Assembly (NCBI GenBank): GCA_964652235.1
Contig: CAZZDK010000009.1
Coordinates: forward strand, 6,261-70,260
Length of the DNA: 64,000 nucleotides
Direction of reading: 5' to 3'
Source: an uncultured Rhodospirillaceae bacterium
GTDB lineage: Bacteria; Pseudomonadota; Alphaproteobacteria; UBA9219
In this document: positions 27,382 through 64,000 of the stretch, piece by piece
How positions within the stretch are numbered: the first letter of the stretch is position 1
How the letters are laid out: each line of letters opens with the position of its first letter
Program-made: the position numbers and the translations under genes
Notes under the pieces: model-generated
The model's input: the letters and a program-made list of their open reading frames with translations, nothing else
Database searches by the model: none
What the model was told of the DNA's origin: nothing

Positions 27382-27596
27382 GGACGAAAGACCTCCCGGC
27401 GCGAAGGGGGAGACGCAGGGACGGAGGAGAGACCGATTGGAGCCAAACGCCGAAACGCCATGCGGGACACATACCTTGCAAACGGACAACGACAAACGTC
27501 TGCCCAAGGAAGCCTCGGACATCCTTGCTGTTTTAACGGCAAGATTATGAACAATTAACTAACGCAAAAGATTTAGAAAAGCCCTTTCGTTTTCCC

Positions 27597-30134: not shown

Positions 30135-30311
30135 GTTTTTTCTCGCAAGCGGTTTGCGAAACTATGGCAACCTAAGATTTAATTTTCTTCTAACAAAGCG
30201 CAAAAACAAATGGTTACGCCTGTGTTCCGCCGCTGCCTCCTCTCCATTAATCCAGTCTTAAAGATCGGTTCGATAAAGTGGGGTCGGCTCAAATAGACAA
30301 AGGGTCTTCGC

Positions 30312-43752: not shown

Positions 43753-44901
43753 TCAAGGGATCAAATAAACCAAAAGAGCGTTCAGCTTCCGCCGCCCTTC
43801 CGCTGTGGCGCGTAAAAAAGCGGCGCCCTCTTCCAAGAGCCCCTCCTCCAGGAGAGGTTGTCGTTTTTCTCTCGGTAAAAAGGATTCCATCTCTTCTCCG
43901 AACAAAGCCTTCCATCGGGCCTTTTCTATCCCTTGCGTCAAACGAAGCCCCATCATCAAGGCCTCGATCCGGGCGGCCTGGCCGTCCAGCCTTTCCTCTG
44001 CCATCGCCCCGCGACCTGTCCGTCGCGTTTCCTCCAGCCATTGTTGCGGCTTTTGAATGTTTTCCGTCGCTCGGCGGCCTTCCGGCAGGAAAAAGCGCCC
44101 CTGCGCCCCGGGACCGACGCCGATGTAGTCCCCGTAGGTCCAGTAAGTCAGGTTGTGGCGGCTCTCCTGCCCCGGCGCGGCATGGTTCGAGATTTCATAG
44201 GCGGGCAGTCCGGCTTTTTCGAGGACGGCCTGCGTCTCCTGAAACATTTCCGCCGCCGCTTTTTCTTCCAGATTAAGCGGCTCCTTTTGCGTTTTTTTAT
44301 GAAACGGTGTCCCCGGCTCGATCGTCAATTGATAGAGAGAAAGATGGCGCGGTGCGAAGGAAAGCGCCTCGTTCAGCTCTTCGCGCCAGGCATCGAGCGT
44401 TTGCCCGCGCCACGCGTAAATCAGATCGAAGGAAAAGCGAGCGAAGGTCTCCGCCGCCGCTTCAAGCGCCCGCCGCGCGGCAGACGCGTCGTGCGCGCGG
44501 CCCAGAAAGCGCAACGCCTCGTCGTCGAAAGACTGGACGCCCAAAGAAAGCCGGTTCACTCCCGCAGCCCGAAAAACCCGGAATTTTTCTCTTTCCGAGG
44601 AAGAGGGGTTCGCTTCGAGCGTTATCTCGCAAGCTCTCGCAAGCGGCCAAAGCGTTTTTATCTTTTCAAGAATCGCAGCCACGCTTTCCGGCTTCATAAG
44701 CGAAGGCGTGCCGCCGCCGAAATAAACGGATGTTATTTTCCTGTCCGGCAAAAGAGCGGCATAAAAAGACAGCTCTTTTTGATAGGCCTCGACCCATGTT
44801 TTTTCGTCAAGCGCGTCCGGCAAGGGCTTTGAGTTGAAATCGCAGTACGGGCATTTCGAAACGCAGAAGGGCCAATGGATATAAACGGCGAGCGAGGTCA
44901 T
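43753..44901 (-). CDS. hemW: Radical SAM heme chaperone HemW (HemN-like)
   Basis: [16 protein letters not shown] CxxxCxxC motif. 382 aa. Confidence 0.85.
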
Positions 44902-45482
44902 GTCTCAAGCCGCTTTTTCAGCGCTCGCACGGCGCGGCCCCTGTGGCTCTGCGCGTCTTTTTCGGCGGCTTTCATTTCGGCGAAGGTCCGCGTTTCGCCC
45001 GCGGGCTGAAAACAGGGATCGTAACCGTGGCCCTTATCGCCGCGCGGCGGCCAGACGATTGTTCCCTCGCACCGTCCTTCGAAAAGCTCCTCGCGCCCGT
45101 CGGGCCAGACTAAAGCCAAAGCGGCGATGAAAAAGGCCGAGCGATCTTCGTTTTCCGCCAATTCTTCGTGAATCCGGCGCATGGCCTTCATAAAATCTTT
45201 ACCCGGCCCGGCCCACCTCGCGGAATAAATCCCCGGCTCGCCGGAAAGCGCCTTGACGCACAGGCCGCTATCGTCGGCGAGCGCGGGCAGCCTTGAAGCC
45301 TTCGCGGCGGCGCGGGCCTTGATCAGCGCGTTTTCCTGAAACGTCGTTCCCGTCTCTTCCGGCTCCGGCAAGCCCAGCTCGCCCGCCGAGACCATTTCCC
45401 CGACAAAGGGCGACAGCAGGGCCTGAAACTCCCTGAGCTTGCCTTTGTTGTGCGTGGCGATGACAAGGCGCGGAATTTTCAT
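44898..45482 (-). CDS. rdgB: Non-canonical purine NTP pyrophosphatase RdgB/HAM1 (start trimmed to [15 protein letters not shown])
   Basis: [12 protein letters not shown] motif. TGATG overlap with rph stop verified in sequence. Confidence 0.85.
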
Positions 45483-46201
45483 CAGGCGTTCTCGATGACC
45501 GCCTTTTGGATCGCGGCCAGTTCGCCCGCCCCCTTGCGGGCCAGCGTCAGCAGGGCTTGAAACTGCTCTTCTTCGAAGGGGGCCTGTTCCGCCGTCCCTT
45601 GGATTTCGACGATCTTGCCCGCGCCCGTCAAAACGAAATTCGCGTCCGCCTGGGCCGAGGAATCTTCGGCGTAATCCAAATCCAAAAAGGGCTTTCCCTC
45701 GCAAAGCCCGCAGGAGACGGCCGCCACGCTGTCCAAAAGGGGCAAAGCCGCCAGCCTGCCCGTTTTCCGAAGGTGCTTAAGGGCCAAAGCCAGCGCCACA
45801 TAGCCGCCCGTGATGGAGGCGGTGCGCGTGCCGCCGTCGGCCTGCAACACGTCGCAATCAATCTTGATTTGGATCTCGCCCATGGCCTTGCGATCCACGA
45901 CGGCGCGAAGCGACCGCCCGATGAGGCGCTGAATTTCCTGCGTGCGGCCCGTTTGTTTGCCGCGCGCAGCTTCCCGGTCGGTGCGGTCCTGCGTCGCGCG
46001 AGGCAGCATTCCATATTCGGCCGTTACCCAGCCTAGGCCGCTGCCGCGCATAAAGGGAGGAACTTTTTCGCAAATCGTCGCGGCGCAAAGAACGTGCGTG
46101 TCGCCGCATTTGATAAGACAGGAGCCTTCGGCGTATTTGGCGAAGCCCGGCTCAAGGGAAAGAGAGCGCAATTGATCGAAGGCGCGGCCTGAGGAGCGCA
46201 T
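45482..46201 (-). CDS. rph: Ribonuclease PH (start trimmed to [12 protein letters not shown])
   Basis: RNase PH family. Classic alphaproteobacterial rph-rdgB-hemW order. Confidence 0.9.
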
Positions 46202-46668
46202 AAAAAATCCTTTCTTCCGGAAGAACGACGCCCCCCTATAGCACGTCCAGACCTTTTGCGCGAAAAAGTGAAGGGAAACGGAAAGTTTCTTTTTTCGCAC
46301 CTTCTTTTTTTGCCTATAAAGGAAAGCTTAACCTTTTTTAATCATTGAATCTCTTGCAAATATTTTAGCCTTTTGTTTTTGCTTCTTTTTATTGCTTTCA
46401 TGCCGAAATCCTCTTAACATCCTCCTTGGAAATTGGTAGGAACCCAATCGCTTTTGAAGGAATCGTCACAACAAAGGTTTTTTGAGAGGTTTTTATGCTA
46501 GCCCCCCGTCCTGTCAATCCGACCGAATGTTTAGCCGCCTTTGTCGGCGAGGGCATCGTGGCTGTCGTTCTTTTGCATCCAGAGCCGCACCATCCTGATT
46601 CCGTGCAGTTTTTCCGGGATCTTTTCCCGACGCCGAATCCGGCCTGATTTTTATGGCTTTCTCCCAAA

Positions 46669-46700
46669 CGCGCCCCTCCCCCCGGGGGGCGCGTTTTTGT
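46669..46700 (+). terminator. Strong rho-independent terminator (cgcgcccc ... ggggcgcg + TTTTT) in a large AT-rich intergenic region; may end a small ORF (46495-46647, 50 aa) or an sRNA
   Basis: 8-bp GC stem and T-run seen directly. Confidence 0.65.
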
Positions 46701-46789
46701 TCGTTTTTTTCCGATAGATAAAATTTGTCTTAAATGCCCCGGATTCTTGAGAGGATCTTAGGCTTTTTAGGCTTTAATGGGAGCATAGT

Positions 46790-47095
46790 TTGAGGCTTTG
46801 TTTGAGGTGTTTCATGCGACCCCAGCCCCTTGTCCTTCGCGCCCTCGGCGCCGCCAAAGAGGCGACTTTTTCGCGCGGCGGTCTTTTGGGAGAGAATTGG
46901 CCAGACCGCGCCGTTCGTCTTCAAACGGCGGTCCGGCTTGAAGGAAGGTCTTCTTATGCCGATCTGTCGGCCGCATCGGGCGACGCCTTTGCTCTCGCGG
47001 CCAAAGGAGAACTTCCCTCTTACGCGGCGTCAAGGCCGCAAAAGGCCTCTTTTGCTTCCGCGCTTCTCGCCAGGCTGGGGCCGTCGAGAAACTAA
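46790..47095 (+). CDS. Hypothetical protein (101 aa), speculative
   Basis: ORF only. Ends convergent with the HIT gene stop. Confidence 0.2.
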   Translation: MRLCLRCFMRPQPLVLRALGAAKEATFSRGGLLGENWPDRAVRLQTAVRLEGRSSYADLSAASGDAFALAAKGELPSYAASRPQKASFASALLARLGPSRN

Positions 47096-47454
47096 CGTTT
47101 CTCGACCATCCGCCCCAGCGCCGCGCCGCCGAGAATATGCACGTGGTAGTGCGGCACTTCCTGTCCGCCGTTTACGCCGCAGTTTGAGATGAGGCGATAG
47201 CCGCTTTCCTGCAAGCCCAGCATTTCCACCACCTCGCCGAGCGCGCGCATGAACCCGGCGATTTCCTTGTCGCTGGCCTCCCGCGTGAAGGCGAGCTGGT
47301 TTTCGTAGTCGCCCTTGGGAATCACGAGCGCGTGGATCGGCGCCAGCGGGTGAATATCGTGAAACGCGAGGGCAAAATCATCCTCGTAAATTTTCTTGCA
47401 CGGGATTTCCGAGCGCAGAATTTTAGCGAAGATATTATCGGGATCGTAAGCCAT
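47092..47454 (-). CDS. HIT-family (histidine triad) protein
   Basis: HYHVHILGG histidine triad. 120 aa. Confidence 0.85.
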   Translation of the reverse strand: MAYDPDNIFAKILRSEIPCKKIYEDDFALAFHDIHPLAPIHALVIPKGDYENQLAFTREASDKEIAGFMRALGEVVEMLGLQESGYRLISNCGVNGGQEVPHYHVHILGGAALGRMVEKR

Positions 47455-47469
47455 GGCGAAAAGCTCCTT

Positions 47470-47973
47470 TCATTTCGGTTTTTTCAGCAACACATAATAC
47501 GCCCCCTCGCCGCCGTGATGGGGCGCGGCGAAACGAACGGCCCGAACAGCTTCGGCTAAAGGCGACGCTTCGCACCAACGCGGCAGATTGGCCCGAAGAA
47601 CAGATCCGCCGTCCTGGCCTCTGCCCGTGATGACCAGCACGAGTCGCCGGTGAAGTTTTTGTTGTTTTTCGACAAAGGCGGCCAAGGTTTCGTGCGCCTG
47701 CGCTTCGGTTTTGCCGTGAAGGTCCAGCCGGGCCTCGATCACGACGTCGCCCAGGCTTAAATTGCGCTCGACTCGCAAATCGAGCGGCTCGGACTTGGCT
47801 GGCGCGGCGCCGCGCGGCGGAGAAGCCACAGAAATTTGTTCTTTTTCTTCTCTTTCCGGTTTTAACAGGGGCTGCGGCGCTTGGGTCTTTGCGGGGACAA
47901 GCGTTTTTTCTTCGGCCCCTAATTTCCGTACGCCTTTCGTATAGCTTTTCCAAACGTCGTCGTCTTTGGTCAT
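47470..47973 (-). CDS. Smr-domain protein (start trimmed to MTKDDDV; ATGA overlap with mltA stop)
   Basis: Smr motif IEARLDLHGKT...LVLVITGRG. Confidence 0.7.
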   Translation of the reverse strand: MTKDDDVWKSYTKGVRKLGAEEKTLVPAKTQAPQPLLKPEREEKEQISVASPPRGAAPAKSEPLDLRVERNLSLGDVVIEARLDLHGKTEAQAHETLAAFVEKQQKLHRRLVLVITGRGQDGGSVLRANLPRWCEASPLAEAVRAVRFAAPHHGGEGAYYVLLKKPK

Positions 47974-49022
47974 GGGCGGCCCTTCGGCAAAAAAACATAC
48001 CATGTCCCGCGCTCCTGCATAGCGCCCGCTTTTTCCTCGGCCTGGCCGCCCGCGCCCCAGAACAGATCGCCGCGCAAGGGGCCTTTGATCGCCCCGCCCG
48101 CATCCTGCGCGACGGCCAAACGGCGATGTTTTTCCCCCGCGATCCAAACAGGCGCGCCGAACGGAATAAAGGCCGGATCGACGGCCAAAGAACGCCCCGG
48201 CGTCAAAGCGACGCCCTGCGCGCCGACAAGCTCGCCCTCCGGCCTGATTTTGAAAAAGACGACTGAGGGATTGAGGTTCATCGTCTCTTGCTGCCGTGAA
48301 GGATATTTCTCAAGCCATTCGATCATAGCCCCCATCGTCACAGGCCTTTCCAATTCGCCCGTCCGCAGCAGAAAGGCGCCGATATGGCGATAGGGATGGC
48401 CGTTGCGCCCGCCGTAACCGACATGGATCGCGCGTCCGTCCGGCAATAAAATGCGCCCCGACCCCTGCGTTTCGAGGAAAAAGGCCTCCATGGGGGAAGC
48501 GACCCAGGCGACGGGTGTCGCCCTTCCCTTCAGCGATCCGGCGGCGATTTCTTCGCGCGTATCGTAGGGAACGAGTTTGCCTTTCTCGATTTTGCCGAAA
48601 AGTTTTTGGTTTGTTTTGTTTTTGTCAAAAGCGCCGAGATCGACTTCGACCAAATCCTTAGGCCGCCCCCAAAGCGGCGTGCGAAACGGCCCTTCTTTTT
48701 TCAAAGAGCCCTGCAACGTCGCCTCGTAGTAACCCGTGAAAAGGCCGTCACCGATAATTTCATAGGGCGTAAATTGCTTTTCAAGCGCTTCGCGCACGCC
48801 TTTCTCGTCGCCCTCCTTAAGCCCGATCAAAGCGCGGCAGGCCTCGCTTTTTCGAGGGGCGTCCTTCCCGCAGGATTTTTTGAGCGCGGGCAGCGCCTCG
48901 CTGACCTTATCCTCTCTCCAGCCGGGCAGGTCGGCGAAGCTTCGCGCCTCCAGCCCTTCCGGCTCCCCCGCCCCCTGGCACGCGGCCAGAAAAAAGCAGA
49001 CGAGGGCCAAAGCCCCTCTCAT
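47970..49022 (-). CDS. mltA: Murein transglycosylase A (lipoprotein; start trimmed to MRGALALV...LAAC)
   Basis: MltA domain plus C-terminal 3D domain (AQDAGGAIKGPLRGDLFWGAG). Lipobox LAAC. Confidence 0.8.
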   Translation of the reverse strand: MRGALALVCFFLAACQGAGEPEGLEARSFADLPGWREDKVSEALPALKKSCGKDAPRKSEACRALIGLKEGDEKGVREALEKQFTPYEIIGDGLFTGYYEATLQGSLKKEGPFRTPLWGRPKDLVEVDLGAFDKNKTNQKLFGKIEKGKLVPYDTREEIAAGSLKGRATPVAWVASPMEAFFLETQGSGRILLPDGRAIHVGYGGRNGHPYRHIGAFLLRTGELERPVTMGAMIEWLEKYPSRQQETMNLNPSVVFFKIRPEGELVGAQGVALTPGRSLAVDPAFIPFGAPVWIAGEKHRRLAVAQDAGGAIKGPLRGDLFWGAGGQAEEKAGAMQERGTWYVFLPKGRP

Positions 49023-49744
49023 GAACGCGTCTCGACCAATTGCCAGTTGGGATCGGGCGAACGCAGATCGCGCCGGAAAGTCCACAGATCGCGCACTTCC
49101 TCGGCGCGCCCCGGATCGCCGTCGAGAATTTGGCCCGAAGCGTCGCGCAGCACGTTGACCTGATGGCTTACGAACTCGACGGACAGCGTGGCGACGGTAT
49201 TTTCGATTCTGGCCGCGACGATATCCGCCGCCGCAAGCCGCTCCATGCGGTTTTCAAGCGTCTGGCCCGCCGCCTTGCGCGCCTCGATGGCTTTTTCGAA
49301 CGGCCCCCGAACGGCGGGGCCGAGGAAACGGACGACGGGCGATAAATCGCCCGCCGCGAAACATTCCACGATTTTCGCGAAAACGAGCTTCGCGCCGTCT
49401 AGGAATTTTTTCTCATCAAACGTGTGGTCCACCAGCCGGAATTGGTCGAGCGTCCCCGCCAGGGACATCGGCGCATGGCCCTGCGGCGTCAAGACGGAAG
49501 CCGTCGGCGCTGGCCGCGCGCGCCCTTCCAGAATCATCACGTCTTCCTCGTCCGTCGCGGACGGCTTGGTCTCTTTGGGAGAGGCGAACGGATCGGGCCG
49601 CGACGTGTCGTCGGCCTCATCCTCGTCCCTGCGGCCCAGAACGGAGCGCAGCCGCGCGATCACCAAAATCGCGACGACCGCGTAAATGAAAATGTCGAAG
49701 TTTTCCATGAAACGAAGCATAGCCGGGCCCGTCGTAAAGCGCAA
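49019..49744 (-). CDS. Tim44-like domain membrane protein
   Basis: N-terminal TM (IFIYAVVAILVIARL), charged linker, C-terminal Tim44-like fold. ATGA overlap with mltA start. Confidence 0.7.
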   Translation of the reverse strand: MRFTTGPAMLRFMENFDIFIYAVVAILVIARLRSVLGRRDEDEADDTSRPDPFASPKETKPSATDEEDVMILEGRARPAPTASVLTPQGHAPMSLAGTLDQFRLVDHTFDEKKFLDGAKLVFAKIVECFAAGDLSPVVRFLGPAVRGPFEKAIEARKAAGQTLENRMERLAAADIVAARIENTVATLSVEFVSHQVNVLRDASGQILDGDPGRAEEVRDLWTFRRDLRSPDPNWQLVETRS

Positions 49745-49760
49745 TTGGGTCGATGAAGGG

Positions 49761-50423
49761 TTAGGCCGCCATCGCGCGCTTATAATACGCCGTCAGGCTG
49801 TAATTTTCCTTCTGTCCGAACGACCAAGACGCCAAGAATTGATCGATGGGCACGGCCTGTTCCGGTAAAGGCGGCAGTCCCGGATTTTGAAGATAGATGT
49901 TTTGTCCGTCCATGCCGTAAATCAAAACGAAATGCGTGCGCGTCCCCTCGGCCTTGCGCAAAGAGGGTCCGTTCACAAGAACGCTTACATACGCGCCCTC
50001 TTCCAAATGGTTTGCAATATCTCCAAGAACGGCGGGCCGCACTTCTTTTGTGATGTTTTCGTTGCCTTCCGCCCAGCGCATGGCTTCAAGAAGAACGTCA
50101 AGGCTCGGGCTATGTGCCAGCTGATCTTGCATGAACGCCTCGCCGCCGCGCTCGCGCATGTAATCCCAGCCTCGTTCGATAAAAGCGCGATTGTTCCACG
50201 TTGAAACCAAATGCAACCGGCAGCCCGCTTCGATCAGGCTTCGCCAGAACATCAAGCCCCACGTGTATTTGCCCTCTTCTTTATGGACAACACGGTCAAT
50301 GGTCTCGAACGGCCAGTTTTGCTCGGGGAAAAACGTCTCAAGCACCATGCGCCAGCAAGCGGGGCCGCAGCGCGTATCGTCCTCGCTATTGGCGACAAAG
50401 CGAGGAAGAGGCAACCGAACCAT
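49761..50423 (-). CDS. Papain-like cysteine peptidase, C39-like family
   Basis: Catalytic Cys context DTRCGPACWRMVL and His THFVLIYGMDGQNIY. 220 aa. Confidence 0.55.
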   Translation of the reverse strand: MVRLPLPRFVANSEDDTRCGPACWRMVLETFFPEQNWPFETIDRVVHKEEGKYTWGLMFWRSLIEAGCRLHLVSTWNNRAFIERGWDYMRERGGEAFMQDQLAHSPSLDVLLEAMRWAEGNENITKEVRPAVLGDIANHLEEGAYVSVLVNGPSLRKAEGTRTHFVLIYGMDGQNIYLQNPGLPPLPEQAVPIDQFLASWSFGQKENYSLTAYYKRAMAA

Positions 50424-50439: not shown

Positions 50440-51348
50440 TTATCCCTGCAGCTTCCTGAGCAGCGCGTCGAGTTGATCGAGGTCCGAGTAAAAGACCGTG
50501 AGCGAGCCGGAGGATCCCATTGAGGTGATTTTGACGCGCAGGCCGACGGCGCGCTCCAGTGCGCGCTCCAGCGCCAAAATGTCGGGGTCCGTATTTTGCG
50601 AGGCGCGCGGCTTTTTGGCGAACCGCCCGTCGGACAATTTTTTCGCGAGCGCCTCCGCCTGTCGGACGCTCAGGCCCTTTCGCACGATCTCGCGGGCCAG
50701 CGCTTCGGGGTCCTTCGCCGTCACGATGCAGCGCGCGTGGCCCATCGTAAGCTCGCCTGCGTTGATCATGTTTTTCACGGGTTCGGGCAGCGTCAAAAGA
50801 CGCAAAAGGTTCGTGATATGCGGACGGCTTTTGCCCACGACCTTCGCGAGGCCGTCTTGCGTATGGTGAAACTCTTCCAAAAGCCGCTTATAGCCTTCCG
50901 CCTCTTCGAGCGGCGAAAGATCCTGTCGCTGCACGTTTTCGATAAGGCCGATTTCCATCGCCTCGCGGTCGGAAAAATGGCGCAAAAGAACGGGGACTTC
51001 GTGCAGCCCCGCGATTTGCGCGGCGCGCCAGCGCCGCTCGCCCGCAAGAATTTCGTAGCTGTTTTCTTCGCCCGCGATGGGCCTCACCATGATCGGCAAA
51101 ATAACGCCGCGCTCTTTGATAGAGCGGGCGAGGTCCTGAATGCCTTCTTCGTCGAAACGGCGGCGCGGCTGGTAGGCGCCGGGCTGAATCCATTCGATCG
51201 GAAGCGTCTTCGTCTCTTCCTCGCTTCGCGCGGATCGCGCTTCGGCCCGGACGGGGACCGCGCGTCCGTAGGAAGAATCGGCGTCGCCGAAAAGGGCCGA
51301 AAGACCGCGCCCTAAAGGCGCCGGTTTGCCTGGTGTTTTCACGTTCAT
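50440..51348 (-). CDS. parB: Chromosome partitioning protein ParB
   Basis: ParB box GLIENVQRQDLSPLEEAEGYKRL; HTH. Confidence 0.9.
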   Translation of the reverse strand: MNVKTPGKPAPLGRGLSALFGDADSSYGRAVPVRAEARSARSEEETKTLPIEWIQPGAYQPRRRFDEEGIQDLARSIKERGVILPIMVRPIAGEENSYEILAGERRWRAAQIAGLHEVPVLLRHFSDREAMEIGLIENVQRQDLSPLEEAEGYKRLLEEFHHTQDGLAKVVGKSRPHITNLLRLLTLPEPVKNMINAGELTMGHARCIVTAKDPEALAREIVRKGLSVRQAEALAKKLSDGRFAKKPRASQNTDPDILALERALERAVGLRVKITSMGSSGSLTVFYSDLDQLDALLRKLQG

Positions 51349-52214
51349 GCGTCCGTCCCCGTTTGTTTCATGCTTATTTTGATCCCTTCGCTTCGCAATT
51401 CCTCACGGCGCAAAACCTCGCTCGCCAAATGCAGATAGGCGTTGCTGCCCGAACATTTCAGGTCGTAAAGCAAAACCGGTTTCCCGTGGGACGGCGCCTC
51501 GGAAACACGCACATTGCGCGGAATGGACGTCTCATAAACTAAGTCGCCGAAAAAGGCGCGAACGTCTTGAGCGACAGCGTCCGACAAGCTATTGCGTTTA
51601 TCGAACATGGTAAGCACAACACCTTGTATTTCTAGCGAGGGATTGAATCGTGCCCGAACCGCGTCGATCGTCTGCAAAAGGCTGCTCATGCCCTCCAGCG
51701 CATAGAACTCGACCTGCAAGGGCACGAGCAATCCGTCCGCCGCCACCAGTGCGTTGAGCGTAATGAGGTTGAGCGAGGGCGGACAGTCGATCAAAATAAA
51801 ATCGTAATCCTTGGCGCTGCGCTCCAACGCGTCGCGCATACGGGATTCGCGGCGCTCGGTATTGACAAGCTGAATTTCCGCGCCCGCAAGGTCCGCCGAC
51901 GAGGTGATGATCGAAAGATTGGGAATGGGCGTCGCGCGAACCACGTCTTCGACGGACAGGCCGTCGAACATCAATTCATAAGCCCCCGCGCCGCGCTCGG
52001 CGCGGGAAATGCCGAACCCCGTCGAAGCGTTGCCCTGCGGGTCGGCGTCCACGATCAAAACGCGCTTGCCGACCGCCGCCATGGCGGTGGCGAGATTCAC
52101 GGCGGTGGTGGTTTTGCCCACGCCGCCTTTCTGGTTCACGATGGCGATGACGCGGCACCCGCAGGCGTAGCCGCCGGAGGGGGGAGGATTATTTATGTTT
52201 TCGTTTGGCGTCAT
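51345..52214 (-). CDS. parA: Chromosome partitioning ATPase ParA
   Basis: Deviant Walker A IAIVNQKGGVGKTTTAVNLA. Confidence 0.9.
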   Translation of the reverse strand: MTPNENINNPPPSGGYACGCRVIAIVNQKGGVGKTTTAVNLATAMAAVGKRVLIVDADPQGNASTGFGISRAERGAGAYELMFDGLSVEDVVRATPIPNLSIITSSADLAGAEIQLVNTERRESRMRDALERSAKDYDFILIDCPPSLNLITLNALVAADGLLVPLQVEFYALEGMSSLLQTIDAVRARFNPSLEIQGVVLTMFDKRNSLSDAVAQDVRAFFGDLVYETSIPRNVRVSEAPSHGKPVLLYDLKCSGSNAYLHLASEVLRREELRSEGIKISMKQTGTDA

Positions 52215-52306: not shown

Positions 52307-53008
52307 TTAGTCTTTTAAGCCTTTATTCCGTCCGGCGAACGAACCGCTCCTCGCGACCGCTCGTGACCTAAACGAATTTCCTTTTCGCACCCTCTGTCTT
52401 AGATCACGAATAAGCAAAACCGCCCCGGACGGGTCGGTCCGGCTCTCTCTTTTTTCCGCGCTGAATGTCCAATATTTACGCGCCTCTGTCAATTCCGCAT
52501 CGGCCTTTTGGCCCTTCAAAAACAAACAAACCCCGTCCGACTTCAAAAAAGGCTTGGCCAAGGATAAAAGCTCGGCCAAAGGGGCCACAGCCCGCGCCGT
52601 CACGACATCGGCCCTTAAATTCCTGATTTTTTCCGCCCTCTCTTGATGAACCGTGACGTTCGGGGCCAGTTCGGCGGCCACTTTTTCCAAAAACCTGGCC
52701 TTTTTGCCGATACTTTCTATGAGGTGAACCTCTAAACCCCCCATGATGGCCAAAACCAGACCCGGAAAACCTGCCCCGCTGCCCAGATCGACCAGACAGG
52801 TTGTTTCCCGTGGTAAAAGGGCGAAAAGTTGGGCCGAATCCCAAAAATGCCTTTTCCAAAGATCCGGAATCGTGCTGGCGGCCACGAGGTTGATTTTTTC
52901 GTTCTCTTCAACCAAAAGCGTCGCGTAACGTTCTAATTTTATTCGCGTTTCACGAGGAACTTGATTTTCCTCGAAAAATTTTTCTTTGTTTTGAGTGGGT
53001 TGCGCCAT
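52307..53008 (-). CDS. rsmG: 16S rRNA (guanine527-N7)-methyltransferase RsmG
   Basis: SAM motif VDLGSGAGFPGLVLAI. Confidence 0.85.
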   Translation of the reverse strand: MAQPTQNKEKFFEENQVPRETRIKLERYATLLVEENEKINLVAASTIPDLWKRHFWDSAQLFALLPRETTCLVDLGSGAGFPGLVLAIMGGLEVHLIESIGKKARFLEKVAAELAPNVTVHQERAEKIRNLRADVVTARAVAPLAELLSLAKPFLKSDGVCLFLKGQKADAELTEARKYWTFSAEKRESRTDPSGAVLLIRDLRQRVRKGNSFRSRAVARSGSFAGRNKGLKD

Positions 53009-53009
53009 G

Positions 53010-54863
53010 TCAGCGTCTCTTGGCGTAACGCAAAAGAGCGATGGTCGCGGCAGGCGTCACGCCGGGAATTCGGGCCGCCGCGCCGAGGGTTTCCGGCTTG
53101 ATTTGCTTGAGTTTTTGGCGAATTTCGTTCGACAGACTGCCCACGGAATCGTAATCCAGATCAGCGGGCAGAATTAGGTTTTCGTCCCGCCGGAAAGCCT
53201 TAATGTCCGATTCCTGCCTTTCCTTATAGCCTTCATAGGCATTTTCGATCCGCATTTGCTCGAAAATCGCCGCCTCTATAGCGCCGATTTCCGGCCAAAG
53301 GGTCGAAAGATTCTCAAAAGTCGTTTCCGGATAAGCCAAAAGCTGCGCGGCGGTACGGCGCAGGCCGTCCTGATTCACGCGAAACCCCGCCTTGGCCAGT
53401 TCGGACGGCGAAGCCGTCAGATTTGATAAAAGAAGGCGGGCTTTTTCCAGTTTTTCCTTTTTGGCCTGAAAGGCCCTTTTTCTCGCCTCGCCGACGCACC
53501 CGATGGCGATCCCTTTATCCGTCAGGCGCTGATCGGCATTGTCGGCCCGAAGAGTCAGGCGATATTCCGCCCGCGAAGTGAACATCCGGTAAGGCTCGTT
53601 CGTGCCTTTGGTGATCAGATCGTCGATCATCACGCCGATATAGGCCTCGTCGCGCCCAAAGCTCACCGGCGGCGATCCTGCAAGCTTCAGGGCGGCGTTC
53701 AGGCCCGCCACCAGGCCTTGCGCCGCCGCTTCTTCATAGCCCGTCGTGGCGTTGATCTGCCCGGCGAAGTAAAGACCCGGCACAAGCTTGGTTTCCAGCG
53801 TCGCGCGCAAGCCGCGCGGATCGCAAAAATCGTACTCTACGGCATAGCCGTGGCGCAAAATCCGAACCTCTTCCAGGCCCGGAATGGAGTGGATCATAGC
53901 GTCCTGCACGTCGCGGGGCAGGGAGGTTGAGATGCCGTTGGGATAAACGGTGTCGTCATTCAGTCCCTCAGGCTCCAGGAAAATCTGGTGCCGCTCGCGA
54001 CCCGCGAAACGCACGATTTTATCTTCGATGGAGGGGCAATAGCGCGGTCCGATGCCCTGAATTTGGCCCGAAAAAAGAGGAGCGCGATGAAAGTTCGCGC
54101 GGATAATCTCATGCGTTTGCGGCGTGGTATGCGTGATGGCGCAGGCGATTTGCGGGTTTGTAACGGCCTCCGTTAGCGTCGAAAAAGGTTCCGGTGGAAC
54201 GTCGCCTTCCTGCCGCGCCAGATCCTTCCATTTGATGGTATTCCCATCGAGCCGCGCGGGCGTGCCCGTCTTAAGCCGCCCAAGCTCAAAGCCCAATGAT
54301 TTCAAAGAATTAGACAGACCCACCGACGGCGGCTCGCCGATCCTTCCGCCGACGATCTTTTCCTCGCCGATATGCATGAGCCCGTTCAAAAACGTGCCCG
54401 TGGTGACGATGGCGGCGCGGCCCCGAAAAGAAACGCCGTCCGCGCCGATGACGGTAAAAAAGCTGTTTTCGTCGCGTTCCAGCGCCTCGACCCGCATCGC
54501 GCGAAGCGTTAGGTTCGGCTGTTTTTCGAGCGCTTCGCGCATGAACTTGCGATAAAGCTGGCGGTCCGCCTGGCAGCGCGGGCCGCGCACCGCCGGACCT
54601 TTGCTGCGATTGAGGACGCGGAATTGAATGCCCGCCGCGTCGGCCACGCGGCCCATCAGCCCGTCGAGCGCGTCGATCTCACGCACCATCTGTCCCTTGC
54701 CGAGACCGCCGATGGCCGGATTGCAAGACATTTCGCCCAAGGTTTCGAGGGAAAGCGTGGCTAAAAGGGTCTTGGCTCCCAGCCGCGCGGACGCGGCGGC
54801 GGCCTCGGCGCCCGCATGGCCGCCGCCGATCACGATGACATCGAAAGTTTCCTGAACGCCCAT
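53010..54863 (-). CDS. mnmG: tRNA uridine 5-carboxymethylaminomethyl modification enzyme MnmG (start trimmed to [15 protein letters not shown])
   Basis: FAD motif [16 protein letters not shown]. 617 aa. Confidence 0.9.
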
Positions 54864-55008
54864 CTTTTCCTGCTTTTCCGGAGCCGAAAGGGTATAGAGC
54901 GGAAAAGGGGGTGAAAGCAAATGGGGAGTGAGGGGCTGGACTTCGCGGAGAGGCTTGGTCCTTTTTGAAAAAGAGCGGTTATCCGGTTTGGCGCGAAAGG
55001 GGCGTTTC

Positions 55009-55635
55009 ATGAAATTTCTTGTCGAGGAAGCGCTGCGAGAGAAAAGCGCCGTCTGTCGAAAGATATTGGGCCTTTTGCCGCAATGGTTCGAGCTTCCTGA
55101 AGCCAGGAAACGCTATATTCAAGGCGTAGAGACAAAACCCATGTTTTGTTGTCGCCTGAACGAAACAAAAGAGATTGTCGGCTTTCTTTCTCTGCATGAC
55201 ACATCGGATTCTGCCGCAGAAATATACGTTATGGGGGTCATGCCCGATTATCATCATCAAGGCATCGGCACCGCTCTTGTGGAAGCGGCTTCGTCTTATG
55301 CCGCCGAAATGGGGCGTGTTTATTTAACCGTGAAAACTCTGTCCCCGGAACATCCCGATCCTCATTATGCCGTCACGCGACGTTTTTATGAAAAAGTCGG
55401 ATTCATGCCACTTGAAACATTTCCGACCCTATGGGGGCCGGAAAATCCGTGCCTTCTGATGAGAAAGATTCTGCGCGAGGGACAGGTTCCTCCCGGTCCC
55501 AAAAAACGGCGGAAAATAACAAGGACCCCCTGCAACGCCCCTGGATTGCCACGGCGCTTCGCGCCTCGCAACGACAGAAATGGGTGGGGGGAGCGGGTTT
55601 TACAGTTCTTCACTTCCCTATACAAAACTCGCTGA
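55009..55635 (+). CDS. GNAT-family N-acetyltransferase (start MKFLVEE; convergent 26-nt overlap with mnmE 3' end)
   Basis: Acetyl-CoA motif [13 protein letters not shown]. Confidence 0.6.
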
Positions 55636-56944
55636 AGATGACGTCGAGGAGGTCTTCGACGTCCACGCGGCCCGTGATGCGGCCCAAAGAGCGCAGGGCC
55701 AGGCGTAAATCTTCCGCGCAGAGCTCCGCGCCGTCCGCGATCAATGCGCGGCGCAGATGGGAAAGCGTTTCCTCCAGCGCCGTGCGGTGGCGTTGGCGCG
55801 TGAGGGCGGGGGCGGCTTCGCCCACGAAGCGGCGGTCGATTTCCTCGATGAGCCGCGCGGTCAGCGCGGCAAGGCCGTCGCCCGTCGTGTTGGAAACAAG
55901 GCTGGCGCCGGAAGCCAGGATTTCAGCCTTTTTCGCCTCGGCCAGCGCGTCTTTGCGCGTGACGACGACCAGCGCGTTTTCGTCTTCCAGCGCCGCCGTT
56001 TCCGCGTCTTTTTCGGGCCAGCGCGTTCCGTCAAACAAAAGCAGCTTGAAATCCGCCTGCTCAGCCCGCGCTCGCGCGCGGCGCACGCCTTCGGTTTCGA
56101 TCACGTCTTTCGTCTCGCGCAGCCCCGCCGTGTCCACAAGCGTCACGGGATAGCCGCCCAAATCCAAATGCACCTCGATCGCGTCGCGCGTCGTGCCGGG
56201 CGTTTCCGCGACAATGGCGGCTTCGCGCTTCGAAAGGGCGTTGAGCAAGCTTGATTTCCCCGCGTTCGGCGCGCCCAAAAGGGCCACGAAAAAGCCTTCG
56301 CGAATTTTCTCCCCGCGGCGGGCATCGTTCAAATGCGCGGCGATTTCCTTTTCCAAAAGCCGCGCGGCCTCCAGTCTCTCGGCTGCGATTTCCGGCGGCA
56401 ACTCTTCGTCGGCAAAGTCGATTTCAGCTTCGATAAAAGCCAACGCTTTTTTAAGCCGCTCCGCCCAGTCCCCGTAAAGACGGCCCAAAGCACCGTCCAT
56501 CTGCCGCAAAGCCTGGCGGCGCTGTGCCGTCGTTTCCGCGTCGATAAGGTCGGCCAGGCCTTCCGCTTCGGTCAAATCCATCTTGCCGTTTTCAAAGGCG
56601 CGGCGCGTATATTCGCCCGGCTCGGCAGGCCTAAAATCGTCGAGGGAACACAAAGCAGCCAGCGCCGCAGCCACCGTCGCCCGCCCGCCATGCAGGTGAA
56701 GCTCGGCCATGTCCTCGCCCGTAAAACTACGCGGCGCGGGGAACCAGAGGACCAGCGCCCGGTCGATTAGTTCGCCCGTTTTCGGGTCTTTCAGGGCGCG
56801 AAGGACGGCTCGGCGCGGCTCCGGCGGCTCGGCCTGGCGGCAAATTTCGGGGAAAACCGCCCGCGCATCGGGACCGGACACGCGCAAAACCGCCACGCCC
56901 GAACGGCCCGGCGCGGAAGCGAGCGCGACGATCGTTTTCTTCAT
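55610..56944 (-). CDS. mnmE: tRNA modification GTPase MnmE
   Basis: G1 GAPNAGKSSLLNAL, C-terminal CIGK. Confidence 0.9.
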   Translation of the reverse strand: MKKTIVALASAPGRSGVAVLRVSGPDARAVFPEICRQAEPPEPRRAVLRALKDPKTGELIDRALVLWFPAPRSFTGEDMAELHLHGGRATVAAALAALCSLDDFRPAEPGEYTRRAFENGKMDLTEAEGLADLIDAETTAQRRQALRQMDGALGRLYGDWAERLKKALAFIEAEIDFADEELPPEIAAERLEAARLLEKEIAAHLNDARRGEKIREGFFVALLGAPNAGKSSLLNALSKREAAIVAETPGTTRDAIEVHLDLGGYPVTLVDTAGLRETKDVIETEGVRRARARAEQADFKLLLFDGTRWPEKDAETAALEDENALVVVTRKDALAEAKKAEILASGASLVSNTTGDGLAALTARLIEEIDRRFVGEAAPALTRQRHRTALEETLSHLRRALIADGAELCAEDLRLALRSLGRITGRVDVEDLLDVIFSEFCIGK

Positions 56945-57296: not shown

Positions 57297-59342
57297 TTGT
57301 CTTGCACGACGCTTGCCGTTAGTCTCCTCTCCATGAAAAAAACCCTTTCCTTTTTCATTCCCTTCGCCCTTCTCCTTCTCGCCCAGGCCGGGTTCGTCGC
57401 GTTGTTCCTTTTCAAGGAAAAGGCCCTCCCCTTTTGGGATTACGCCATGTATGCCGATATGGCGCAAAGCTGGTTTTCGCAAAGCGATCCGTTTCGATCT
57501 TTCTGGCAAAGCTTCGATGAAAATTACAATCTGCTTTTCGCCCTGCCTTCTTTTCTGACTTTCTCCCTTTTCGGGCCGTCGCGTCTCGTTTTCATCGAAA
57601 CCAACTTTTTCTTTTTCGCGGCGCAGGAAGCGGCTCTGGCCTTTTGCCTTGTTTCCCTGTTCGGTTTTTCCTGGAGAAAAGCTCTTTGGTGGGCCTTCGG
57701 CCTTTGTTCCCTTCTGCCGTTTTTCTGGCACCCGCTTCTTCACGGCTATCCGGATCACGCGGCGGGGGCCTGCCTGACCTTCGCTTTAGGGTGGGGACTC
57801 AAAGATCGTCGTTCCTGGCGCGCGGCTGTTTATGCGGGGTTGTTTTTGGGGTTTGCGATCGTTTTTCGCCGTCATTTTGCTTATCCGGCCCTGGCCTTGA
57901 CGGCGGTTTTCGCCGCAACGGACGTTTGGCGGCGCTCCCCCCTTTTAAGTCTGGTCCGTTTTTACGTCCCGCTCGGCGCGACGGCTTTGGCTGTTTTGCT
58001 TCTCCTGGAGCCGGGATATTTGCAAACCATGCTTTTGACGGATTTTCAGGCGCTTTATAAAGCCTACGAAAAAACTCCCTCGGCTTTCGCCTTTTTTCTC
58101 GCCGGCCGTTTGGGGCTGCTTGTTCTTCTGCCTGCTTTGGCCGGTTATGTTTTAGGCTTTTCTTCCTGGCCGGAGCGCCGGGAAGGGTTGGCGGTCGTTT
58201 TTCTTTTCGGCCTCGTCTGGTTCGGCCTGTGGGGCTTCGGGCCGGGCCAGGCCAGCGAGCATTATCTTTTGTCCGCGCCGCCCGTTTTTTGCCTTGTGGG
58301 TCTTGTCTGCTTTTTCGGCCTTTTGAGAAACCGCGCCTGGGCCGTCGCTTTCGGCCTTGTTTTGGCGGCGAACGCGGCGAACGCCCTGTGGTTTGCCGAA
58401 AATTTCCCTTTGCCGAGCGATCCGCCCGCCTTATCTTTTCTAAGCTCGCCGCACCCGCCGTGGGTCCGCGCAGACCGGGAAGAGCTTTCGCGCCTCGCGC
58501 TTTATCTTGAGCAAACCACGTGGGAGACTGACCGGATCGCCATCGTGGCCTCGTCCTTTATTCTCAACCAGGATCTTCTGGGCCGCGTTTTCAGGGACGT
58601 TTTGAAAAAGCCGTCGCTTTTGCGGCGCCTCCTTTTCGTTTCGGAGGTGGACTTCGTTCAGCCGCCTTCTTTCGACGCTTTCGCGGGGGCCAACGTTTAC
58701 GTGGTTCCTGAGCCGACGCAGTATCATCTCGCCCCCGAAGGGCAAAAGGTTCTCGGCGCGTTCGCTTCTCTGTTTCCGCCGCCGCCCGCGTTGGCGCCTT
58801 TCTTCAAAAAAGATTCCGAAACCTTCGCGCTGGAAAGGGGCGTGGTCGTCCACGTCTGGCGGCGCGAGGCGTTTCCACCGCCCGTCCTTCACGCCGGTCT
58901 TTCCCTTATGCGGCAAAAGGCGGACGCGCCGATTGATTGGGTCGTTTTGCGGCGCGGGCCTTTCGCCGCGCTGGAGCCGGGGCATGGCGGAACGACGCAT
59001 TCGCGTCTCGGCTTCGCGCCGAAGGCCCATGAAGCCTGGCTGTTTTTTGATCGGCCTTTGCCGCCGGGCGCTTACCGCTTAAGCGCGGAAGTCGCGGCGC
59101 AGCCTGTTTGTCTCGATCCGCGCTTGACGGTGCGCGTTTGGGGCGAGAAGAACGGTGTTTTTTACGAACATACGGGCCAGCCCGTTCAAAATCCCGGCCT
59201 TTATTTCGCGCCTTTCGTTTTGCCGAATACAGAGGGCGGTCGCTTTTTTCTTTCTCTTGGGGTATCCTCGCGCGCGCTTGGCTTTTGTTCCGTTTTCCTG
59301 CGGGGCCTTCGCCTGGAAGCTCCTTCTACGTTCTTTCCTTAA
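57297..59342 (+). CDS. Polytopic membrane protein with C-terminal soluble domain; putative ArnT/PMT/GT39-83-like glycosyltransferase or DUF2079-like
   Basis: ~12 predicted TM helices in the first 400 aa, C-terminal 250-aa soluble domain. Function inferred from architecture only. Confidence 0.55.
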   Translation: MSCTTLAVSLLSMKKTLSFFIPFALLLLAQAGFVALFLFKEKALPFWDYAMYADMAQSWFSQSDPFRSFWQSFDENYNLLFALPSFLTFSLFGPSRLVFIETNFFFFAAQEAALAFCLVSLFGFSWRKALWWAFGLCSLLPFFWHPLLHGYPDHAAGACLTFALGWGLKDRRSWRAAVYAGLFLGFAIVFRRHFAYPALALTAVFAATDVWRRSPLLSLVRFYVPLGATALAVLLLLEPGYLQTMLLTDFQALYKAYEKTPSAFAFFLAGRLGLLVLLPALAGYVLGFSSWPERREGLAVVFLFGLVWFGLWGFGPGQASEHYLLSAPPVFCLVGLVCFFGLLRNRAWAVAFGLVLAANAANALWFAENFPLPSDPPALSFLSSPHPPWVRADREELSRLALYLEQTTWETDRIAIVASSFILNQDLLGRVFRDVLKKPSLLRRLLFVSEVDFVQPPSFDAFAGANVYVVPEPTQYHLAPEGQKVLGAFASLFPPPPALAPFFKKDSETFALERGVVVHVWRREAFPPPVLHAGLSLMRQKADAPIDWVVLRRGPFAALEPGHGGTTHSRLGFAPKAHEAWLFFDRPLPPGAYRLSAEVAAQPVCLDPRLTVRVWGEKNGVFYEHTGQPVQNPGLYFAPFVLPNTEGGRFFLSLGVSSRALGFCSVFLRGLRLEAPSTFFP

Positions 59343-61332: not shown

Positions 61333-62192
61333 GCTTGCCCCAAGACGAAGGCGCGAAGCGCCGGGGTGACTTCGGGGTCTTTTCCGAACCAGGCGGCAAA
61401 GCCTGCGCGCGCCTGATGAAGCAACATACCGAGACCGTCCACGCTTTTAAGGCCCCTTTCCCGCGCCTGTTTCAAAAGGGGCGTCTCAAGCGGCGCGTAA
61501 ACGACATCTGTAACCCAGGCGTCCGGGGCCAAGGGAAAAAGATCGACGGGAAGGGGCGGGTTTCCCTTCATGCCGAGAGAGGTGGCGTTGATAAAGAGGC
61601 TTGCTTCTTCCAGCGCCCGCGGAGCTTCTTTTTCCGCAAATATTCTGACGGTTCCGAAGTCGCTCAAATCTTCGGCCAGTTTTTCGGCCCTCGCTCTGTT
61701 TCTGTTGATCAGCCTGATATCTTGAAAGCCCATGGATTGAAGCGCCGCCAGGACCGCCCGCCCCGCGCCGCCCGCACCCCAAAGGGCGGCGATAGGCCGC
61801 GAAGCGCTCAAAGAAAACCCGGCTTCCTTTAAATTTTCGGCAAAGCCGAAAACATCCGTGTTGCTTCCCCTTATTCTGCCGTTCGCGAGGACCTCCAGCG
61901 TATTGACGGCGCCTATTTTCGCTGCCTGCGGATCCAGGTCGTCAACAAAGGCGAGGGCTTTTTCCTTATGCGGGATTGTGAGGTTGCATCCCCTGAATCC
62001 GAAAGCCGTCAAGGCCCGAACCGCTTCTTCAAGCCGTTCAGGCGGGACCGGCATGGGGATGTACGTCCCGTCTATGCCGTAAAGGCGAAGCCAATAGCCA
62101 TGAAGCTTCGGCGACAGCGTATGGCTGACGGGCCAACCCATCACGCCCGCGACAAGGGCTTTCCCGGTTAATGGTCCTTTCTGTTCCTTCAT
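61329..62192 (-). CDS. aroE: Shikimate dehydrogenase
   Basis: Substrate-binding GWPVSHTLSPKLH, NADP motif GAGGAGRAV. Confidence 0.85.
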   Translation of the reverse strand: MKEQKGPLTGKALVAGVMGWPVSHTLSPKLHGYWLRLYGIDGTYIPMPVPPERLEEAVRALTAFGFRGCNLTIPHKEKALAFVDDLDPQAAKIGAVNTLEVLANGRIRGSNTDVFGFAENLKEAGFSLSASRPIAALWGAGGAGRAVLAALQSMGFQDIRLINRNRARAEKLAEDLSDFGTVRIFAEKEAPRALEEASLFINATSLGMKGNPPLPVDLFPLAPDAWVTDVVYAPLETPLLKQARERGLKSVDGLGMLLHQARAGFAAWFGKDPEVTPALRAFVLGQA

Positions 62193-63049
62193 GTGCTTTC
62201 CCTCTCTTTTTCTCTTATCTCTCTTTCGAGTATCTTTTTATTCAAAAGCATCATGACTTCAGCCGCCGTTTCTTCGATGGAGCGGCGGGAAACGTCGATT
62301 ACGGGGCAACCGAGGCGGGCGAAAAATCTTTTGGCTTCTTGAACTTCCTCTCTCACTTTTTCAAGATTGGTGTAGTCGCTTTCTTCCTTTCCCGAAAGGA
62401 CCTTGAGTCGCGAGAGCCTCGTCTCCACGAGGGATTCCGCGTCCTTCGTCAGGCCGACGATCAAGGGTTTCGTCAAGGTCGAAAAATCGATACCCAAAGG
62501 AACCCCGGGAACGAGCGGAACGTTGGCGGCCTTAATTCCCCTATGGGAAAGATAAATACAGGTCGGCGTTTTGGACGTCCGGGAAACGCCCAATATTACG
62601 ACATCAGCTTCATCCAGTTTTTCAATCTTGTTTCCGTCGTCCAATGAAAGAGCGTAATCCATCGCCTCAATGCGCGCGAAATAATCTTCGTCCAAAGCGT
62701 GCTGTTTTCCCGGATCCCTGGCCGCCTTTTCTCCGAAAAAGGCGCTCATGGCCAGTAAAACGGGATCGAGAACGGCATGGTTCGGCAGATCGTTTTTACG
62801 GCAAAACTGAATAAGCTCAGCGCGAAGCGTTTCATCTATAAAGGTAAAGAGGACAAGGCCCGGCCATTGGCGAAGCCCCTCCTTGACAAGATCCAGTTGC
62901 CTTTTGGTGCGAATGAGACTCCAAAAATGCTCTTGAATCTCAAGCGTTTTGAACTGAACGAGGCAAGCGCGCGCGATGCTGTTGATCGTTTCCCCTGTCG
63001 CATCGGATACGAGATGAACGTGGAAAGTCTTTTTTTCGGTTTCATTCAC
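62189..63049 (-). CDS. Pyruvate, phosphate dikinase / PEP synthase regulatory protein (DUF299 kinase-pyrophosphorylase)
   Basis: N-terminal FHVHLVSDATGET, P-loop ILGVSRTSKTP. Confidence 0.8.
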   Translation of the reverse strand: MNETEKKTFHVHLVSDATGETINSIARACLVQFKTLEIQEHFWSLIRTKRQLDLVKEGLRQWPGLVLFTFIDETLRAELIQFCRKNDLPNHAVLDPVLLAMSAFFGEKAARDPGKQHALDEDYFARIEAMDYALSLDDGNKIEKLDEADVVILGVSRTSKTPTCIYLSHRGIKAANVPLVPGVPLGIDFSTLTKPLIVGLTKDAESLVETRLSRLKVLSGKEESDYTNLEKVREEVQEAKRFFARLGCPVIDVSRRSIEETAAEVMMLLNKKILEREIREKEREST

Positions 63050-63411
63050 TATTTTTTAACTCGCGTCGGGTTATGGGGATAAGTCGATCAAGCGAAGGTC
63101 TCTTGGCTTTTCGCTCCGCCTTTGCTCGATTTTATCCACGAAACAGGATTCCGTGGACTCTTTTTTCTACCCCCCTGTGAAAAGAGTGGATCGTTCAGTC
63201 CGGGATTATGCCCGTTATCCACATTTTTGTCCCCTCTTGATTTTGATGATTTTTAATCTTTTTTTCACACTTTTATCCTCGAAAGACAATCGGGGATTCA
63301 AAGGAATGTCTGGGGGAAAAATCGGCATTAAAAAAATCCCCAATCTTCCCAAAATCAACTACTCTCCACCAATCTTTATATTAAAGATAAGGGACGAGAA
63401 GCGTGGACAGA
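63050..63411. other. Candidate chromosomal replication origin (oriC): AT-rich divergent intergenic region with DnaA boxes TTATCCACA (63215-63223, perfect), TTATCCACG (63132-63140), TTATCCTCG (63273-63281) and a T-rich DUE-like tract
   Basis: Boxes seen directly. Location next to hemE and 8-13 kb from parAB-rsmG-mnmG matches the alphaproteobacterial (Caulobacter Cori-type) origin context. Confidence 0.45.
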
Positions 63412-64000
63412 ATGCCAGCCGTTTTGCTTGATCTGCTTAAGGGGCGTGACGTCGAAACGATGCCTGTATGGCTCATGCGGCAAGCCGGACGTTATCTGCC
63501 GGAATATCGGGCGCTTCGTGCGCGTGCCGGGTCGTTTTTAGACCTTTGTTTGACGCCTGAACTTGCGGCGGAGATCACGCTTCAACCTGTCAGGCGCTTT
63601 TCTCTGGACGGCGCTATTCTTTTCGCGGACATCCTTCTTATGCCTTATGCGCTGGGACAAGGGCTTTCTTTTAAGGAAGATTACGGGCCCGTTTTAAGCC
63701 CCCTGCCCCCGAAGCTTGAATGGCATGAAGAGCGGTTAGAGCCTGTTTTTGAGACCATCCGAAGGGTTAAAAAGGAACTATCGCCCTCAGCAGCTTTTCT
63801 GGGTTTTTGCGGCGGTTTTTGGACGCTTGCTTGTTATATGATCCAGGAGAACAGAAAAGCCGGATTTGAAAAGCCTCTGGCCTTGGCTTTGAGCGGCGAT
63901 GCGCGCTTGGATCGGCTGATAGATGAACTGGTCGAAGCAAGCCTTGCCTATGCTAGAAGGCAGATCAAAGAAGGGATCGACGTCTTTAAGATATTCGACA
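63412..64000 (+). CDS. hemE: Uroporphyrinogen decarboxylase (N-terminal part; runs off window)
   Basis: PVWLMRQAGRYLPEY signature at the N-terminus. Confidence 0.9.
   Translation, partial: MPAVLLDLLKGRDVETMPVWLMRQAGRYLPEYRALRARAGSFLDLCLTPELAAEITLQPVRRFSLDGAILFADILLMPYALGQGLSFKEDYGPVLSPLPPKLEWHEERLEPVFETIRRVKKELSPSAAFLGFCGGFWTLACYMIQENRKAGFEKPLALALSGDARLDRLIDELVEASLAYARRQIKEGIDVFKIFD

Follow-up and report, generated by a model that had tools for sequence, protein, structure and literature searches.

The locus and its genes

The gap examined here spans positions 63050-63411 of the window, i.e., of the whole 64-kb stretch of DNA that was analysed. It is 362 bp long, non-coding and bounded by a divergent gene pair, with a PSRP/DUF299 gene on the minus strand to its left and hemE on the plus strand to its right. 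An earlier reading of the sequence (hereafter the sequence-only reading) had described an intergenic region of ~360 bp between these two genes, and family models identify both of them as it had proposed. The genes which matter for the argument are as follows, the last five having been assigned by family search:

62189-63049, minus strand: PSRP/DUF299 gene (COG1806, Kinase-PPPase; NCBIfam NF003742, E=1.4e-91), the left boundary of the gap
63412-64000, plus strand: hemE, uroporphyrinogen decarboxylase (TIGR01464, E=5.4e-61), the right boundary of the gap, truncated at the window end
55610-56944, minus strand: mnmE
53010-55010, minus strand: mnmG
52307-53008, minus strand: rsmG
51345-52214, minus strand: parA
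50440-51348, minus strand: parB

The PSRP product is the pyruvate phosphate dikinase/PEP synthase regulatory protein. Homologues of the window's PSRP contain PF03618, and the gene is the orthologue of Caulobacter CCNA_00001. To its left, aroE, coaE, dnaQ, mnmE, mnmG, rsmG, parA and parB all lie on the minus strand, and beyond parB there is a 220-aa ORF followed by Tim44-like, MltA, RNase PH, Ham1 and HemN genes. The mnmE-mnmG-rsmG-parAB group had been noted as lying 8-13 kb away, and all five genes are indeed present, at 6-13 kb from the gap.

The gap has a GC content of 0.42, compared with ~59% across the window. The claim that it is the most AT-rich stretch in the window holds in that the lowest GC of any 362-bp stretch is found here (0.406 at 63031), but the margin is narrow, as close runners-up occur near 46171 (0.417) and near 4301 (0.420). 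A 92-aa ORF at 63153-63431 was rejected as spurious, having no family match and showing indels relative to its counterparts in relatives. A scan of 62800-63600 against Rfam matched no RNA families, and on this basis the gap holds neither a riboswitch nor any known sRNA.

The dnaA signature peptides (GKTHL and DH[ST]T[VI]) are absent from all six frames of the 64-kb window, as judged by a motif test and not a profile. A dnaA gene located away from the origin region is usual for alphaproteobacteria. The canonical parS sequence (TGTTTCACGTGAAACA) has no match with two or fewer mismatches in the 64-kb window; a sole parS-like site with three mismatches (53371-53386, within mnmG) is at chance level.

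DnaA boxes in the gap

Nine DnaA boxes or box-like sites can be listed in the gap, boxes B and C from a consensus scan:

63074-63082, minus strand: box A, TTATCCCCA (8/9), ending 25 nt ahead of the PSRP start codon
63132-63140, plus strand: box B, TTATCCACG (8/9)
63176-63184, minus strand: weak box-like site CTTTTCACA, adjoining CGATCCACT
63186-63194, minus strand: weak box-like site CGATCCACT, which reads TTATCCACC in some relatives
63215-63223, plus strand: box C, TTATCCACA (perfect)
63227-63235, plus strand: weak tandem box C', TTGTCCCCT (6/9), 3 bp past box C and with a GC cluster inside
63261-63269, plus strand: TTTTTCACA (7/9)
63273-63281, plus strand: box D, TTATCCTCG (7/9, two mismatches)
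63334-63342, plus strand: weak box-like site AAATCCCCA, which contains an ATCCCCA core

The sequence-only reading had named three of these, i.e., one perfect, one 8/9 and one 7/9 box (TTATCCACA, TTATCCACG and TTATCCTCG), and all three are real and correctly placed. Its list was incomplete, however, as it missed both TTATCCCCA and TTTTTCACA, and the TTATCCTCG that it did include is moderately conserved (67%). The stretch containing TTTTTCACA and TTATCCTCG (63261-63281) forms a direct repeat (78%) with the surroundings of box B.

With no more than one mismatch allowed, the gap contains three boxes, against 0.076 expected from dinucleotide shuffles of the gap itself, none of which (0/2000) reached three. 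With up to two mismatches the count is five, against 1.09 expected from the shuffles (P=0.005). Seven sites with one mismatch or fewer occur in the whole window, a number which is not significant in itself (3.9 expected), and three of the seven fall in the gap, making it the densest 362-bp stretch in the window.

Conservation across related loci

We compared the gap with two sets of related loci. The first consists of six close relatives (L001, L084-L087 and L146) in which PSRP is 71-75% identical. The second is a distant set of 80 species representatives (PSRP 44-58% identical), found by an alignment-based contig scan and spanning Azospirillum, Nitrospirillum, many Rhodospirillales MAGs, Parvibaculum, Hyphomonadaceae and Caulobacterales. 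PSRP homologues in metagenomes reach up to 75% identity; a contig scan which used a single PSRP protein as its query gave no matches. The assemblies GCA_053527515.1 and GCA_053526855.1 belong to close relatives.

The arrangement of the locus is widely kept: hemE and PSRP are divergent and adjacent in 74 of 83 alphaproteobacterial loci, from Rhodospirillales to Caulobacterales, with a gap of ~200-670 bp between them. These homologous gaps average 9.8 GC points under their own flanks, and they contain 2.9 DnaA boxes per kb (one mismatch or fewer) versus 0.12 per kb in ~1.2 Mb of flanking sequence, a ~24-fold difference.

Conservation within the gap is concentrated on the boxes. In five relatives, identity to the window is 79% at box-like positions and 52% elsewhere in the gap (Mann-Whitney P=2e-10). 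Identity to the window across these five is highest for box C (98%; perfect in four of the five, TTTTCCACA in L001), followed by the minus-strand TTTTCACA core at 63176-63183 (97%) and box A (96%; it reads TTATCCACA in L087). Box C' (89%), the ATCCCCA at 63336-63342 (86%) and the plus-strand TTTTCACA core at 63262-63269 (85%) come next, then box B (73%, with variants CTATCCACG, TTATTCACG and TTATCCATG) and box D (67%). Box A, box C' and the two TTTTCACA motifs are thus all better conserved than TTATCCTCG. The ATCCAC core within the CGATCCACT element is also conserved in relatives.

Some of these features extend to the distant set. Many distant loci also have, on the PSRP sense strand, a box situated 10-55 nt ahead of the PSRP start; for example, the equivalent PSRP-proximal box in a Caulobacter MAG reads TGATCCACA and lies at -37 from the duf299 start, the window's TTATCCCCA being at -33. 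Consensus-type DnaA boxes are frequent in Rhodospirillales and the window family, whereas Caulobacterales gaps rarely have them. A metagenome scan with the tandem-box motif TTATCCACANNTTTGTCCCC gave 64 matches, only two of which were hemE/PSRP loci (L145 and L146), and by a rough estimate the remainder are at about chance level for 18 specified bases.

GC skew and gene order

From position 1 the cumulative GC skew declines with hardly an interruption as far as ~63000, and it turns positive in the last 600 bp, the window containing only 589 bp past the gap. Genes of the left arm have a negative plus-strand skew whichever strand they are on (-0.022 and -0.034), so coding strand alone does not account for the negative skew of this arm. 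Third codon positions give a mixed picture, with a skew of -0.09 in plus-strand genes and +0.015 in minus-strand genes. Most genes of the left arm are directed away from the gap (39 of the 57 called, with 67% of coding bases).

The sign of the skew flips across the gap in five of the six close relatives, in flanks of ±10 kb and with the comparison confounded by divergent transcription:

L084: hemE side -0.043, PSRP side +0.056
L085: hemE side -0.045, PSRP side +0.066
L086: hemE side -0.092, PSRP side +0.052
L087: hemE side -0.047, PSRP side +0.044
L146: hemE side -0.026, PSRP side +0.040
L001: hemE side -0.052, PSRP side -0.002

Of the 53 distant loci with at least 5 kb per side, 45 have a higher skew on the PSRP side than on the other (sign test P=1e-7), with the same transcription confounding. 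The ±10-kb comparisons favour an origin at this position but are not decisive.

Gene order carries a further signal. In relatives, the hemE arm reads hemE-hemH-rho-secB-Tim44-MltA-...-RNase PH-Ham1-HemN. In the window, the Tim44-to-HemN block (43753-50423) instead follows parB on the PSRP arm, and its orientation is opposite to that in L001 and L084-L087. An inversion from parB to secB, containing the gap, would account for this move, and under such an inversion each gene retains its orientation relative to the gap. The change of both arm and orientation is as expected from an inversion that spans the origin, and origin-spanning inversions are the commonest large rearrangements in bacteria.

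CtrA, IHF and GANTC sites

The gap contains no perfect CtrA-type TTAA-N7-TTAA sequence, and its two sites with one mismatch are at chance level. It also has no match to the IHF consensus WATCAANNNNTTR, which is a crude one. Three GANTC sites are present. As a positive control, we found 22 perfect CtrA sites in the hemE-PSRP gaps of 17 Caulobacterales and none in their flanks. The same search found one perfect site in seven window-family gaps and one in 54 other alphaproteobacterial gaps, making 78 gaps in total. CtrA sites at this gap therefore appear to be specific to Caulobacterales and Rickettsiales and not to the locus, and since the window's gap has neither CtrA nor IHF consensus sites, direct CtrA silencing of an origin here is unlikely.

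Candidate unwinding sites

Two segments of low duplex stability are candidates for the DNA-unwinding element:

63236-63265, plus strand: T-rich tract of low duplex stability, candidate unwinding element 1
63359-63401, plus strand: hemE-proximal AT-rich element with an inverted repeat and low stability, candidate unwinding element 2

The T-rich tract had already been put forward as a possible unwinding element, and it is the least stable 30-mer in the gap (dG -31.2, versus a window mean of -44.5 with sd 4.0) and the fifth least stable in the 64 kb. This does not carry over to the relatives, however: the hemE-proximal DNA (~63360-63390), which contains the second least stable 30-mer of the window's gap, is the least stable in all six of them. 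A conserved palindrome, CTTTATATTAAAG, lies at 63375-63387, which is 25-37 nt before the hemE start codon, and in all six relatives it falls inside the least stable 30-mer. The hemE-proximal element and its palindrome may serve as the promoter of hemE, as a site for a regulator or as the DNA that actually unwinds, and the element may be promoter and unwinding site at once.

The T-rich tract can also be compared with the basal unwinding system (BUS), which consists of tandem DnaA boxes, a short GC-rich spacer and DnaA-trios (PMC8287927, PMC6669920). The published rule calls for a box with two or fewer mismatches, an optional second box with four or fewer, a spacer of 16 nt or less and at least three NAN triplets, and the commonest spacer is 13 nt (PMC8287927). 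In the window, weak box C' lies 3 bp past perfect box C, and six triplets come next, 13 nt after box C and in the least stable DNA: the frame 63237-63254 reads TTG ATT TTG ATG ATT TTT, i.e., six NTN triplets, or NAN on the other strand. Unlike those of a typical BUS, these triplets match the preferred 3'-GAT-5' poorly. Three or more triplets follow box C in only three of five relatives, from an alignment read by eye and for a pattern which is frequent by chance in T-rich DNA. The window's apparent fit to the box-spacer-trio rule is therefore weak. With trios in only three of five relatives, and with the least stable DNA of the relatives being hemE-proximal, it is uncertain whether the T-rich tract at 63236-63265 or the hemE-proximal DNA at ~63360-63390 would be the unwinding site.

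Comparison with known origins

The origin of Caulobacter, Cori, has been mapped experimentally between hemE and duf299 (PMC6393856; PMC1914354), which bears out the earlier remark that hemE adjoins the origin in Caulobacter-type alphaproteobacteria. Since the boundary genes match those of Cori (CC_3763/CC_0001, hemE-CCNA_00001) and have the same divergent orientation, the window's gap is orthologous in position to an origin located by experiment. Cori is 404 bp and the window's gap 362 bp, and both are AT-rich relative to the genome. They are also alike in having several DnaA boxes (including weak ATCCCC-type sites), a box upstream of the duf299 start, promoters for the flanking genes, GANTC sites and a parAB-gidAB-mnmE cluster within ~10 kb.

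Their contents differ in several respects. In Cori, two DnaA boxes are classed as moderate (G) and five as weak (W), and they share the region with five CtrA sites, five GANTC sites, an IHF site and an AT-rich stretch (PMC6393856). No Cori box is stronger than moderate, whereas the window has a perfect box and two 8/9 boxes. A further difference is that parAB lies on the PSRP arm in the window.

Outside Caulobacter, the hemE/COG1806 boundary has been used to predict the origin of Rickettsia and is regarded as ancestral for alphaproteobacteria (PMC1914354). The features used for Rickettsia and other hemE-linked alphaproteobacterial origins (boundary genes, DnaA boxes and AT content above the genome average) are those seen in the window, but the predicted Rickettsiales origins include CtrA and IHF sites, which the window does not have (PMC1914354). 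In Anaplasmataceae, COG1806 is replaced by COG1253, whereas the window retains both ancestral boundary genes (PMC1914354).

The gap as a probable replication origin

We conclude that the hemE-PSRP gap at 63050-63411 is very probably a DnaA-dependent chromosome origin, orthologous to Caulobacter Cori. The motifs, their statistical excess and conservation, the orthologous position, the local skew and the orientation of genes were each observed directly and all point this way, and DnaA would be expected to bind, unwind and fire the origin here. The sequence-only reading had proposed an oriC between PSRP and hemE, and this proposal is now supported by the box excess, by footprinting, by synteny in 74/83 loci and by the skew flips in 5/6 relatives. 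The class of hemE-DUF299 alphaproteobacterial origins is a known one, and the window is an unannotated member of it, with strong boxes but neither CtrA nor IHF consensus sites. What it shares with other Cori-type origins is the divergent hemE/DUF299 flanks, the excess of boxes and an AT content above average with two low-stability segments; what it lacks in the gap is CtrA sites and an IHF site.

Initiation could proceed as follows. DnaA would first occupy the strong boxes, i.e., C (63215), A (63074) and B (63132), and would next fill the weak sites, i.e., C' (63227), the two TTTTCACA motifs, the GATCCAC (core 63186-63192) and the ATCCCCA (63336). A DnaA oligomer nucleated on the C/C' pair would then grow into the T-rich tract at 63236-63265 and open it, the alternative opening site being the hemE-proximal AT element. 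Helicase loading would follow, and then bidirectional forks, the left one passing through PSRP towards parAB and the right one through hemE. Divergent transcription of hemE and PSRP may assist the opening, as reported for the Caulobacter hemE promoter: replication in Caulobacter requires transcription from a hemE promoter (PMC6393856).

The alternative that survives best, although we consider it improbable, is that the gap is only the divergent hemE/PSRP promoter region under DnaA control, or a datA-type cluster which titrates DnaA, and that replication starts elsewhere. A sigma-70-like promoter on the minus strand (63233-63205, GGGACA-17 nt-CATAAT) overlaps perfect box C and its conserved flanks, so the conservation near this box could partly reflect promoter function, and box A, 25 nt from the PSRP start codon, is a possible position for a repressor. 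Promoters within origins are normal, however, and transcription of both hemE and duf299 starts inside Cori itself (PMC6393856). In Wolbachia hemE and COG1806 have come apart, which means that linkage to one of them is no guarantee of an origin (PMC1914354), but here both boundary genes are retained, just as they are at Cori, where the origin was mapped. A regulated promoter would also need fewer than the eight or nine box-like sites spread over 270 bp. Five of the six close relatives show a sign flip of the skew at this gap, and this, together with the orientation of genes and an arm-swapping inversion centred on the gap, likewise argues for an origin over a promoter region.

It is less probable still that the origin is nearby but in another intergenic region, a few kb off on the hemE side and beyond the window end. 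GC skew resolves the switch no finer than a few kb, and the window shows only 589 bp of the right arm, both of which leave room for such a position. In the close relatives, however, sequence is available for 9-10 kb on the hemE side, and there the flanks have 0.12 boxes per kb and the boxes with one mismatch or fewer concentrate in the gap. Within the 64 kb there is also no intergenic box cluster besides the gap, the cluster at ~30400-30530 being within a hemerythrin-like ORF.

That the boxes are a chance feature of an AT-rich spacer can be dismissed: AT-rich DNA does favour TTAT-containing motifs, and the whole-window count is unremarkable, but composition-preserving shuffles of the gap never yielded three boxes, and the boxes are conserved among relatives while the spacers between them have diverged.

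Accepting the gap as an origin, we tentatively suggest, as something quite possible that we would stop short of calling probable, that this lineage (deep-branching, uncultured and, given its DotM gene, possibly host-associated) may use the ancestral hemE-DUF299 origin in what could be called a "plain DnaA" mode, with strong boxes and a tandem-box/trio module and with no direct CtrA or IHF input. In the 78 gaps, perfect CtrA sites are almost confined to Caulobacterales, with two in the 61 gaps of other lineages; if such sites are indeed a feature of Caulobacterales, CtrA silencing would be a late, lineage-specific addition and not the alphaproteobacterial norm.

An origin annotation for this MAG contig helps with replichore orientation, with coverage-based estimates of growth rate (peak-to-trough ratio) and with assembly checks. 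The gap is in addition one more case for the study of variation among hemE-DUF299 origins, with strong boxes and no CtrA sites here versus weak boxes and five CtrA sites in Caulobacter. The location is an ordinary one for an origin in this bacterial class, and knowledge of origins is unchanged by it.

Other features of the window

The box cluster at 30391-30529 was considered as a rival origin and rejected, as it sits within the hemerythrin-like ORF (~30290-30720), whose identity was judged by eye from its translation. This ORF contains two 8/9 DnaA-like boxes (30391 and 30521), and a perfect CtrA-type TTAA-N7-TTAA lies upstream of it at 30247-30261, all within the region 30179-30530.

The product of a minus-strand gene at 23029-24261 has the C-terminal domain of DotM (PF23127, E=1e-47), a component of Dot/Icm type IVB secretion, which suggests a host-associated or predatory lifestyle for the MAG. 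It is flanked by large ORFs at 20048-22405 and 24391-27522, both on the minus strand.

A 681-aa ORF at 57297-59342 (plus strand) has no Pfam match, looks like a multi-pass membrane protein and has a very strongly negative AT skew of -0.3 to -0.5. Counterparts of 672-697 aa, likewise with no Pfam match, lie beside DUF6489 and mnmE in all close relatives. Finally, a low-GC stretch at 3000-6000 (0.49-0.51, compared with 0.59 for the window) spans most of a 1009-aa ORF (2896-5925, plus strand) and may be foreign DNA.
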